Below are positions 45,001-48,000 of a DNA stretch of 64,000 bases, one piece after another. The stretch covers positions 448,001 through 512,000 of the forward strand of contig CAVSDR010000003.1 of the NCBI GenBank assembly GCA_963726745.1, written 5' to 3'. The stretch comes from an uncultured Verrucomicrobiae bacterium (GTDB lineage: Bacteria > Verrucomicrobiota > Verrucomicrobiia > Chthoniobacterales > UBA10450). The position numbers were made by a program. Each line of letters starts with the position of its first letter. Position 1 is the stretch's first letter.

Positions 45001-48000
45001 CGAACCGGCCACCAGCGCGACGGCGAGCAAGGGCAACGCGGTCCAAAAAAAGTAATTCCCGTAGACCAGGAGCGAGAGCCGGGCGAGCCGCGGCCAAAAC
45101 TGGAAGCTTCGCCGGAAGACTTCGCCCCATCGCAGCCCGCGTCCCGCGGCCAGATCGAGCGTGGCAAATTGCAGCCCACCGAGAAAGACCGGCCACGCGA
45201 GCATGAGCGCGATGACCGCGGGAATCGCAGCCATCCAGCCTTTGGTCATGCTCAAGGTTTCGCCTTGCGTCAGGTCCGGCAGTTCCAGATTCAGCCGCAG
45301 CAAAAACGACGGCACCGCCGGCAGGAGGGCGAGCAGAAGGAAGAGCGGAAAGCCGCGGAAGTAGATGCGGAAGCTTTCCGCCAGGAGGCCGGCAAAACTC
45401 CGGCGGCGAAAGACAGTCGCGAGTGCCGCCTCATCGGGCGTGATCGTGCGGAAGAGTTCCGGAAACTCCGAGGCCGCGCGCCACTCGGTCGCGTTCTCCG
45501 GGCGCACTTCGTTTTCCGCGATCAAGCGCCCTTCCGCTTTCCATTCCTGGAGCGTCTCGAGGTCGACCGGGCCGTATTCTTTTCCCTGCACGCGCACGAA
45601 CCAATCTTCCGTCATGCGCGATTATCGACGCGGAAGCGCGCGAATACGAATCGCGCGAAAAAGGCGGGTGAAGCCCGCTGCTGCGTGGCTACGGTGCTCT
45701 TCGTGAAACTCCTCCTGGTCGACGGCCATTATTACGTTTACCGCTCGTTTTTCGCTCTTCCCGCGCTCTCGAATTCCCGCGGCGAACCGACGAACGCGAT
45801 CCTTGGTTTTGCGAAGACCGTGCGCCGGATGTTGAAAGATCTGCAGCCGGAGATGGGCGCGATCTTCTGGGATGAAGGTCTGCCGCAAAAGCGCGTGGAG
45901 CTGCAGCCGGCCTACAAGGAAACGCGCAAGGAAATGCCGCAGCCGATGGTCCCGCAGCTCGCGCTCATCCGCCGCCAGCTCACCGGCCTGATGGGCTTCC
46001 AGAACATCTCGCTGCCTAATACCGAGGCCGACGATCTCATGGGCTGCTACGCGATCGCCGCGCGTCGTCGCGGCTGGGAAGCGATCCTGGCGACGAACGA
46101 CAAGGACTTGTTCCAGTTGGTCAACGACCAGGTGAAAGTCTACACCACCGCGAAGGCGGACCTGCTGACGCCGAAGGACACCTACGCGCTCCTCGGCGAG
46201 CAGGAAGTGCTGGCTAAATGGGAGTGCTCCCCGAAACAGATCGGCGACGTGCTCGCGATTGCCGGCGACTCCGTCGACAACATCCCCGGCGCCGGCGTGG
46301 GCCGGAAAGCGGCCGCGGCGTTGCTCCGCGAACATGGCGACCTCGAGACGCTCCTGGCCAATCTCGACCGCGTGAAAAGCGCGCGGACCCGCGAGAAGCT
46401 GGCGGCGGCGCGCGAGCAAATTTTGCAGAACCGGAAAATGGTCGAGCTCGATTGCGACACGCCGCTGCCGTTGCCGCTGGACGACCTGCGCATTCGCCCG
46501 GATTACCCGGCGTTAATCGGTTTCCTGGAGCAGCACGAGATCAAATCCGTCCTCCAGGAGGTGCGCGACGAGGCCGCGAAGGTGGGAATCGCCCAGCAAA
46601 GCGAGCTTTCCCTGTAGGCCGGAAAATTCCCGGAAAATTCCTTGAACGTCCGCCGCGGGCCGCTGTCTCACTTATCAGGTTAAGGCGATTCGGGCGGCGG
46701 CACGTTTTCCGTATTTGTTGTTTCTCCTACGTGCGTCGCCCGGATCTTTTTTTTGCCATCTCGTCGGCTAAATTCTGAGCCGCACTCCGGAGTTGTCAGG
46801 CTCCTCGCGCTCTGCTGAGGTTTCCCCTCGCCTTTCCATGGAATCCTCTTCTTTCGGCCTGCGTGGCTATGTGATCGATGCGCCGCAGTTCGGCACCTTG
46901 CGCGGGCTGCGCGACGGCGCCGTGGTCGTGGAAAATGGCCGCATCGCCGCGATTGGCGATTACCAGGAGCTCCGCCGCCAGGGCAAGCCCGGCCTGCGCT
47001 GGATCGAGCACGAGGACGCGGCGATTTTCCCCGGGCTGGTTGATTGCCACACGCATCTCCCGCAATACCCGGTAGTCGCCCGCGGGCAGGACGCGCTCCT
47101 GCCCTGGCTGCGCGAGAATATTTTCCCGACGGAGCGCGAGTTCAGCGGGCCCAAGGCGCGTGAGGAAGCGCCGCGTTTCTTCCGCGAGCTCGCGCGCCAC
47201 GGCACCACCACTGCGATGGTCTACAGCGCGATCTACGAGGAGAGCACCGATGCCGCTTTCGAGGCCGCGGAACGGAGCGGCCTGCGCGTGATTCTCGGCA
47301 AGATGATGATGGACCTCGGCTCCTACGGGTCGCTTCAGCCGAAGAAAATCCTCAGCATTTCCCTGCGCGAAAGCGAGACGCTTTGCCGGAAGTGGCACGG
47401 CGCGGCCGAGGGGCGAATAGACTACGCTTTCAGCCCGCGTTTTGCCGTCACTTGCTCGGAGAAATTGATGCGCAGCGCCGCGGAGCTCGCGCGCGAGCAC
47501 GGCGCCTATCTCCAGACGCACCTCGCGGAAAACCGCGAGGAGATCGAGAAAGTGCGCAATCTCTACATGTGGGCGCGCGACTACACCGACGTCTATGAGC
47601 AGGCCGGAATGCTCACGCCGAAGACCATGCTCGGGCATTGCATCCATCTTTCAGCGCGCGAGGTCAGCGCCATCGCCGGGGCGCGCTCCGCGGTCGCGCA
47701 TTGCCCGACCTCGAATCTCTACCTCGGCAGCGGCGTGATGAAGCTCGACCAGCTCCGCGCTGCCGGCATCGCCGTTGGCCTCGGTTCCGACGTGGCCGCC
47801 GGACCGGAATTAAACCTGTGGCAGGTGATGCGCTCCGCGGTGGAATCGCAGCGCGTGCGCGCCTTTTACGAGCCGGAGGTGCAACCGCTCCGCCTCTCGG
47901 AAGCGTTCTACCTCGCGACCGCCGGCGGGGCCCATGCTCTCGGCAAACAAAACGTGATTGGAACTCTCGATGTCGGAAAGGAAGCGGACTTGCTCGTGGT

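Follow-up and report, generated by a model that had tools for sequence, protein, structure and literature searches.

Within the window, the whole 64,000-nt stretch of DNA that was analysed, a previously undescribed RNA of 78 nt (46677-46754, plus strand) lies between a 5'-3' exonuclease gene and a guanine deaminase gene, and is made up of a leader of 10 nt, a stem of 18 bp around a 23-nt loop, and a U8 tail. The features of the locus are these:

45706..46617, plus strand: 5'-3' exonuclease gene, the upstream context, whose mRNA may end at the same terminator
46621..46641, plus strand: A/T-tract 5' of the -35 box, which we take to be UP-element-like; A/T tracts occupy the equivalent place in relatives
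46642..46647, plus strand: -35 box TTGAAC of the predicted sigmaE-type ECF promoter (family consensus tYGAAC)
46665..46670, plus strand: -10 box GTCTCA (consensus GTCnAA), 17 nt 3' of GAAC
46677..46686, plus strand: predicted +1 (A46677, placed from spacing only) and 5' leader AGGUUAAGGC, unpaired in the fold, putative seed 1
46687..46746, plus strand: 18-bp stem with a 1-nt bulge, doubling as terminator stem (fold, alignment)
46706..46728, plus strand: 23-nt U-rich loop, with family-specific UUUCUCCU at 46721-46728 as putative seed 2 (alignment, target matches)
46747..46754, plus strand: U8 tail (T8) of the intrinsic terminator (window sequence)
46838..48166, plus strand: guanine deaminase gene, the downstream context, which varies among relatives

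In the window the leader reads AGGTTAAGGC, the arms at 46687-46705 and 46729-46746 pair over 18 bp with one bulge, and the loop has TTTCTCCT as its 3' end. The fold energy is -30.9 kcal/mol and none of 200 shuffles is as stable (z -4.19 for 46677-46754; z -3.45 for 46676-46755). The hairpin RNA of about 80 nt with a long stem and U-run, described in a first-pass annotation, is real. A simple terminator scan leaves the U8 terminator unflagged because the loop is longer than 8 nt; some copies in relatives have weak U tails. The genome from which the window comes (hereafter the home genome) holds one strong copy and two short chance-level matches (E 0.4 and 0.75), and viral contigs gave no match. 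As annotated earlier, there is no Rfam match: a scan of the window at E<=10 places no family over the RNA, and the same holds for 28 relatives (20 at E<=1, 8 more at E<=5). A coding role was rejected, as the stem gives GDSGGG in one frame and an in-frame stop lies immediately upstream of it. Weak BLAST matches beyond the order were set aside as coding look-alikes where inspected, but two of them (G131:C47 and G163:C3) were later matched by the model. A leader-loop pseudoknot was discarded by steric reasoning.

The stem is conserved as a structure, in keeping with the claim that its changes preserve pairing. Within the family it is 98.6% paired; the changes are nearly all one-sided G-U, with a double change in 1 of the 18 pairs. 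In an alignment of 62 sequences from the order and class, double changes appear in 15 of 18 pairs and in none of 500 shuffles to that extent, a covariation count biased by the alignment having been fitted to the model. The GGTTAAGG of the leader is unchanged in all 50 aligned family sequences.

Near-universality in the family also stands, with BLAST matches in 57 of 60 sampled genomes of the family (leaving out the unpublished G002 and G007, 55 of 58), among them 3 of 3 from the genus. Occurrence in other families proved much wider than first claimed, reaching 14 of the 16 families of the order as well as sister orders. A first model matched 58 of 101 genomes from the order, representing 11 of 16 families; a promoter-plus-leader pattern, matching 59 of 101, added hairpins in f4, f54 and f6 (3 of 6 new places being clear), and synteny with a phoB-like gene added f56 and G126. 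In those genomes of f3 and f5 that were searched, the RNA was not found. Because the f56 RNA was found by synteny, model misses are not absences, and the use of f56 as an RNA-negative control was abandoned once synteny revealed its diverged RNA. The exonuclease gene lies upstream in 43 of 48 scored family loci (the exonuclease cluster has 46 members, including two wrong-strand downstream calls and one home-genome locus counted apart), and the flanks vary as reported, with a guaD-like gene, nadC, a response regulator or a convergent gene downstream.

Across the order the leader GGUUAAGG and the stem base are constant except in f53, f56 and G126 (whose leader is AGUUGAGAC), while the loop is variable: UUUCUCC in f1, CUCCUUGG in f52, CCUUGGUUUC in part of f51, and plain U-rich in f57, f6, f2 and f49. 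The sequence of the stem base, GAUUCGGG/CCCGAAUC, is kept across orders and altered in f56. An anti-Shine-Dalgarno (anti-SD) loop, the feature that the first-pass annotation put in the foreground, is accordingly not what defines the RNA in this order; UUUCUCC is family-specific, several families have a U-rich loop without any anti-SD, and the constant part is the 5' leader, which had been overlooked. What stands of that reading is that the loop seems to pair with SD-like start regions, GGAGAAAC preceding the family's TonB-receptor and porin genes. SD use in the home genome is itself near background: of 2058 ATG genes, 178 have GGAG at -20..-4, where a control window gives 150; these genes come from an in-house script (3016 genes) with crude start codons. 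PMC10783764 names some Verrucomicrobia as SD-scarce.

Beyond the order, the hairpin has a second form. At E<=0.5 the model matches 54 of 151 genomes across the class, the weakest by chance, and the 25 sister-order loci that we examined have the same stem without the leader and without an adjacent ECF promoter. Their loop is near-invariant, with a UCCCC sub-hairpin and CACCUCCUU. An all-species pattern scan gave at least 120 matches, those listed comprising 24 with the leader, 95 leaderless and 1 by chance. Among those listed, all 24 of the leader form have an ECF promoter and none has CACCTCCTT, whereas all 95 leaderless matches have CACCTCCTT, and of these 52 show a sigma70-like promoter pattern and 3 an ECF-like one; the scan pattern demanded TCCTTGG and so favours anti-SD loops. 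In named records the leader form belongs to Chthoniobacterales, and the leaderless form includes Limisphaerales and Pedosphaera. In a sample of the phylum, 10 of 151 match a second model, and by eye one of seven weak matches, from another class, is a true leaderless homolog. The sigma70 form may be the older of the two because of its wider spread.

The promoter-like element of the first-pass annotation is present in every family locus that could be scored, but its nature had gone unrecognised: by its sequence it is a sigmaE-type ECF promoter, GAAC-N17-GTCnAA. In the window TGTC falls 16 nt past TTGAAC. The family has 52 loci, one of which stops at a contig edge, and tYGAAC-N17(18)-GTCnAA-N6/7-GG occurs in all 51 with upstream DNA (50 of 50 without G002, which supplies one promoter locus; apart from this and the BLAST count, no result depends on G002 or G007). 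The -35 variants are TCGAAC in 37, TTGAAC in 13 and CCGAAC in 1, and the spacer from GAAC to GTC is 17 nt in 49 loci and 18 nt in 2. A regular expression finds the pattern in 50 of 52 order loci. For comparison, the sigmaE boxes given in PMC1804206 are GGAACTTTT (-35) and GTCAAA (-10), and those in PMC9546586 are AAC and GTCWAA.

Among the 13 sigma70-family genes of the home genome, the motif occurs only at an RpoE-like ECF sigma and, upstream, at one group-2/3 sigma. The ECF sigma (C3:624599-625192) lies in an operon of a zinc peptidase (PF04298), the sigma and a putative membrane anti-sigma, with the motif both before the operon and within the sigma coding region ahead of the putative anti-sigma. 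Its best solved relatives are AlgU/sigmaH- and sigmaE-type proteins; its score of 128 bits is below the RpoE equivalog cut-off of 236, and a paralog 43% identical to it exists. Nearly all genomes of the order have a match to this ECF sigma (59 of 61 at E<=1e-40), and all 30 of the best ortholog loci carry the motif, upstream in 15 (in only 6 by a stricter pattern) and internally ahead of the anti-sigma in 28, where the protein may account in part for retention since this copy sits in coding sequence. A matrix trained on the relatives' RNA promoters and scanned over the home genome ranked a degP-like gene first, skp second (from a promoter within the end of bamA), the group-2/3 sigma third and the RNA fourth, ahead of riboflavin synthase, the anti-sigma, a tricorn protease, an OmpA-domain protein, a ClpX-like ATPase and others. 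Within its top 20, 16 lie no more than 200 nt from a called start; when the spacers were set wrongly, in five different pairs, the number was 0-5. The motif thus predicts an autoregulated RpoE-like sigma with an envelope regulon, and because it occurs at the sigma's own gene, this sigma is presumably the one that reads the RNA promoter.

The leader points to outer-membrane protein (OMP) mRNAs. In the home genome CCTTAACC lies near three called starts, those of glycogen phosphorylase, a TonB-dependent receptor (TBDR) and an OMP beta-barrel, and alone among 420 permutations it scores two OMP matches. Candidate target start regions in this genome include those of the OMP gene at C4:157393-158049 and of the TonB-receptor genes at C6:848786 and C6:920610. 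With at most one G-U, the 8-mer matches 3 of 24 OMP versus 10 of 2989 other start regions; with either seed the figures are 4 of 24 and 34 of 2989 (P = 2e-4), where the 24-gene OMP class is heuristic and was loosened once candidates were known, and where P values overstate because kin are not independent. Most OMPs of the home genome are therefore siteless. Two target families, chosen because their home-genome members had sites, were followed into the relatives (50 of 52 OMP matches and the best 30 of 71 receptor matches, two being dropped from each set where the start was unclear). The leader complement occurs in 16 of 60 of these start regions, the home genome excluded, in 13 genomes of 5 families; it is the best of 420 permuted seeds, the next scoring 8 and the median 0. 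A canonical leader site occurs in 3 of 328 background start regions, taken from the loci already collected, and in none of 33 EF-Tu start regions (50 of 60 EF-Tu loci were taken, 33 of them in genomes with a known loop). In leaderless relatives, TBDR start regions have the site in 0 of 16, with 3 of 19 dropped and other receptor subfamilies represented.

In f1, f52 and f6 the OMP site falls at codons 5-7, for example as ATC GCC TTA ACC, a 12-nt perfect complement, and its variants retain pairing via G-U; in the f7 receptor GCCTTAACC stands about 30 nt 5' of the start. The site often lies within signal-peptide codons and uses TTA, the codon for 17 of the 50 leucines at positions 2-8 in the relatives as against 2.5% in signal peptides of the home genome, the codon bias of that one genome being the only comparator. 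G255 has no RNA at the syntenic locus or by model search, yet its TBDR retains GCCTTAACC; in G263 the receptor site is present and the RNA was not found. Counting CCTTAACC 5' of ATG over whole genomes gave only noise, with no distinction between genomes that have the RNA and genomes that lack it.

A natural exchange of seed and target comes from f56. There the RNA precedes a phoB-like gene and has the leader GGUUUGGUUUGCG in both orthologous loci (G215 and G282); the promoter is unchanged and the hairpin (z -3.2) is followed by a U tail. We call it a putative homolog from its promoter, its position and the likeness of its loop to those of f57 and f6, without a model match. The canonical leader site is found in 0 of 10 f56 OMP genes, and GCAAACAAACC, the complement of the f56 leader with one bulge, in 7 of 10 f56 OMP regions. 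Controls gave GCAAACAAACC in 0 of 63 other OMP/TBDR regions, 0 of 55 f56 background regions and 0 of 3013 home-genome regions. Mean energies cross over: the f56 leader gives -15.1 kcal/mol with f56 OMPs versus -10.5 with the others, and the canonical leader -7.5 versus -12.2. As the swap is seen in one genus, it is one event only.

The loop, too, matches the targets of its own lineage, as GGAGAAAC in f1, GAAACCAAGG in f51 and CCAAGGAGTA in f52. A perfect match of at least 8 nt to the cognate loop occurs in 14 of 27 TBDR and 10 of 36 OMP regions, where the loops of other families would lead one to expect 3.1 and 3.6, and in 3 of 33 EF-Tu regions. A permutation of the family labels, made with some loops cut short, gave 3 of 720. 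By whole-loop duplex energy alone, OMPs are not favoured. Complementarity of leader and loop to several OMP start regions is enriched and covarying in these comparisons. For the sister-order form, a perfect-SD pattern, a guess at ATG-KCT-GAA-GAA, TonB receptors and the CCAAGGAG pattern (30 of 134 matches examined) gave no shared target.

We consider it likely that the RNA is a trans-acting, base-pairing sRNA and that the sigmaE-like response of Chthoniobacterales to envelope stress has in it a non-coding, repressive arm. The proposal is grounded in sequence comparison, namely the RNA structure, the promoter motif, the motif at sigma and regulon genes and the covarying complementarity; from these we infer transcription, the sigma that reads the promoter, pairing in vivo, a repressive outcome and any chaperone. 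The earlier suggestion of a trans-acting sRNA with its own promoter is likewise supported. Under envelope stress, the RpoE-like sigma would be released and would transcribe the RNA from GAAC-N17-GTCnAA, along with skp and the degP-like and protease genes. The RNA would then use its 5' leader (GGUUAAGGC, up to 12 nt) and its loop to pair with the start regions, from about -35 to codons 5-7, of mRNAs for a small beta-barrel OMP family, TBDRs and porins, probably blocking 30S loading and reducing OMP flux. Hfq, ProQ and CsrA were not found in the home genome, as reported before; it is 94.7% complete, and absence there is no proof. The genome does have KhpA (adjoining rpsP) and KhpB/Jag (after yidC), either of which is a candidate helper.

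A sigmaE-induced sRNA might instead damp many strongly translated mRNAs through generic A/C-rich or SD-type starts, OMPs not being specifically selected; we think this unlikely, but it is the most probable of the alternatives. Loop composition follows the style of start region found in each lineage, in many genomes EF-Tu matches the loop over 6-8 nt, and the f56 leader pairs with f56 EF-Tu at -14.1 kcal/mol in 2 of 3 regions, close to its OMP mean. Strong sites also occur outside the OMPs, at glycogen phosphorylase (glgP; 10 nt) and, for the loop, at dxs (-22.8 kcal/mol). Such damping does not sit well with the rarity of the canonical leader site in background regions and its lack in EF-Tu, the sole highly expressed control family, nor with a site held at a fixed place within signal-peptide codons in three families.

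Somewhat less probable still is a protein- or ribosome-binding RNA, such as an anti-SD decoy, in which the stem sequence and bulge form the binding site and the mRNA matches are secondary. In its favour, the stem base is conserved in sequence across orders, the sister-order loop is near-invariant, with CACCUCCUU kept in 95 of 95 true leaderless matches among those listed (by a pattern that demanded TCCTTGG), and the sister-order form yielded no shared mRNA target. Against it, leader and loop covary with OMP start regions, and f56 has altered its stem base too. Two ribosomal partners were rejected, matches to neither of them covarying: in the pre-16S trailer AAGGAG comes after the end of the 16S in 29 of 30 loci and in every family sampled, whatever the loop, and for 16S helix 45 the sister-order sub-hairpin has internal compensatory changes instead. 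Least probable of all, and in our judgement very improbable, is a purely cis-acting element combining a terminator for the upstream gene with a sigmaE promoter and attenuator for the downstream one (phoB-like in many families, guaD or nadC here). In 29 loci, from several families, the next gene is indeed a response regulator read the same way, and some copies have weak U tails; but there is no constraint on which gene lies downstream, and it is convergent in f51 (5 loci), L002 and L023, no alternative fold was seen, and the target complementarity would be left unexplained. A side role as a terminator is likely and compatible with the trans-acting sRNA that we favour.

On our best reading, that sRNA is an Hfq-free analogue of RybB, MicA and FoxI, related to the sigma70-driven anti-SD hairpin RNA of sister orders. 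By analogy it would work like RybB/MicA, MicV/VrrA and FoxI/FoxJ, but it lies outside those families. As described in PMC1804206, RybB and MicA resemble it in having 70-80 nt, their own sigmaE promoter and an intrinsic terminator, and they repress OMP mRNAs at 5' regions, RybB via a 5' seed, a likeness that is predicted here. The RybB seed CRCUGCUUUU is not matched by the GGUUAAGG of 50 of 50 family sequences, no covariance model of RybB, MicA or any Rfam family matches the RNA, and RybB and MicA depend on Hfq, not found in the 94.7% complete home genome; in the RNA here, the large loop of the terminator holds a second putative seed. The Vibrio cholerae RNAs MicV and VrrA are likewise sigmaE-driven and repress multiple OMPs through a conserved seed, as would be predicted here, but they have the RybB seed and belong to a different phylum (PMC6694218). 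FoxI and FoxJ of Fusobacterium nucleatum are sigmaE-dependent (AAC/GTCWAA), act without Hfq or ProQ and repress abundant OMP and envelope mRNAs, a role only predicted for our RNA (PMC9546586 and PMC11005410). Their seeds are C-stretches, that of FoxJ lying in a predicted hairpin loop (PMC11005410), as opposed to the 5' GGUUAAGG leader here, a comparison made by description and Rfam scan only. The window loop has only CUCC, and sister-order loops have UCCCC and CCCCC.

Before FoxI, OMP-repressing sigmaE sRNAs were evidenced only in Proteobacteria, according to PMC9546586, and our literature search on this subject returned the Fusobacterium papers only. For the Verrucomicrobiota, our searches listed no described sRNA of this kind, though supplementary motif catalogues, such as those of comparative-genomics screens, or papers beyond the reach of these searches could hold it; the main text of PMC7826278 leaves Verrucomicrobia unmentioned, and no earlier findings on this RNA were returned. 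We think it nearly as likely as not, with less assurance than we attach to the sRNA's role, that a sigmaE non-coding arm arose independently in a third phylum. An older sigma70-driven anti-SD hairpin may have been recruited by a promoter swap and the gain of a 5' seed, to act Hfq-free with two seeds that coevolve with each lineage's largely SD-free OMP start regions, up to a full seed and target swap. If so, Verrucomicrobiota, abundant and mostly uncultured soil bacteria, would join the phyla with OMP-repressing sigmaE sRNAs, and would offer a case of an sRNA that changes its regulator and its seed and works in an SD-scarce, Hfq-free cell. Since the proposal predicts a regulator with its regulon as well as a seed and its targets, and since nature supplies compensatory variants, it is directly testable.

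The sister-order form invites a further comparison. RsaE/RoxS and RepG are C-rich anti-SD sRNAs, and the UCCCC hairpin loop and CACCUCCUU of the sister-order RNA, with a seed in the terminator loop, resemble them; there is no Rfam match, however, and the window RNA has lost the UCCCC hairpin. Sigma70-driven hairpins of this seemingly ancestral type, with the full anti-SD loop, occur in sister orders and in one genome of another class.

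The predicted regulon, ranked in the source genome (G000) by a matrix trained on the RNA promoters of relatives, and the operon of the ECF sigma factor are considered here through these features:

G000:C3:618185-619655 (L333:286-1756): degP-like gene, ranked first in the regulon prediction
G000:C6:923816 (L328), + strand: strong ECF promoter motif
G000:C3:624788 (L084), - strand: sigmaE-type promoter motif inside the coding region of the sigma factor, upstream of the putative anti-sigma gene
L084:1903-2601, L092-L094: 5' leader of the peptidase-sigma operon

Orthologous loci retain the sigma-internal motif in 28 of 30 cases. 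In four of five family genomes the operon leader holds CTTAA or CCTTAA. These bases partly match the leader of the RNA, and the RNA may thereby exert feedback on the operon, although the energy is weak in the source genome. Near the active-site motif of the degP-like gene the source assembly has a frameshift, which is probably a sequencing error. The motif on C6 is directed away from the TonB-receptor gene and toward the riboflavin synthase gene, with a structured leader of ~190 nt in between. Sites outside the outer-membrane protein genes were also seen in the source genome, where glycogen phosphorylase carries a perfect 10-nt site for the RNA's leader and dxs a long loop site (L329 and L330 being the glycogen phosphorylase and dxs loci).

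Variation on the RNA side involves both leader and loop. Four genomes (G012, G172, G231 and G256) hold two to three copies of the RNA each, and the loops of the extra copies often differ. Behind an unchanged ECF promoter, other leaders occur, namely AGUUGAGAC, a G-rich variant and GGUUUAAG. As judged from sequence, these would be further natural seed swaps, at the following loci:

L646: genome G126
L155, L159, L163, L180: family f53

The leaderless form is represented in sister orders by the following loci:

L181-L205
L206-L325

Its loop is 35 nt long and near-invariant. A sub-hairpin within the loop, itself showing compensatory changes, presents UCCCC and is followed by CACCUCCUU, which matches the 3' end of the 16S exactly. 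In the sister orders, no target of this form was found. A few members with the anti-SD loop (L182, L184, L185, L279 and L300) have a GAAC...GTC motif further upstream and a longer leader; these may be intermediates, or may have been recruited separately to the ECF sigma. Several leaderless copies have a tRNA gene directly downstream.

In the 16S precursor, AAGGAG lies directly 3' of the 16S gene in 29 of 30 loci (L346-L375), from where it can fold back onto the anti-SD.

The stretch from the RNA to the guanine deaminase gene holds a conserved element, noticed by eye:

L003, L005, L009, L015, L018, L021, L023, L048, L049: AACTGC.G..TTGC ... TGATGTTTTCATAG, directly after the RNA

This element is possibly the guanine deaminase gene's own sigma70 promoter.
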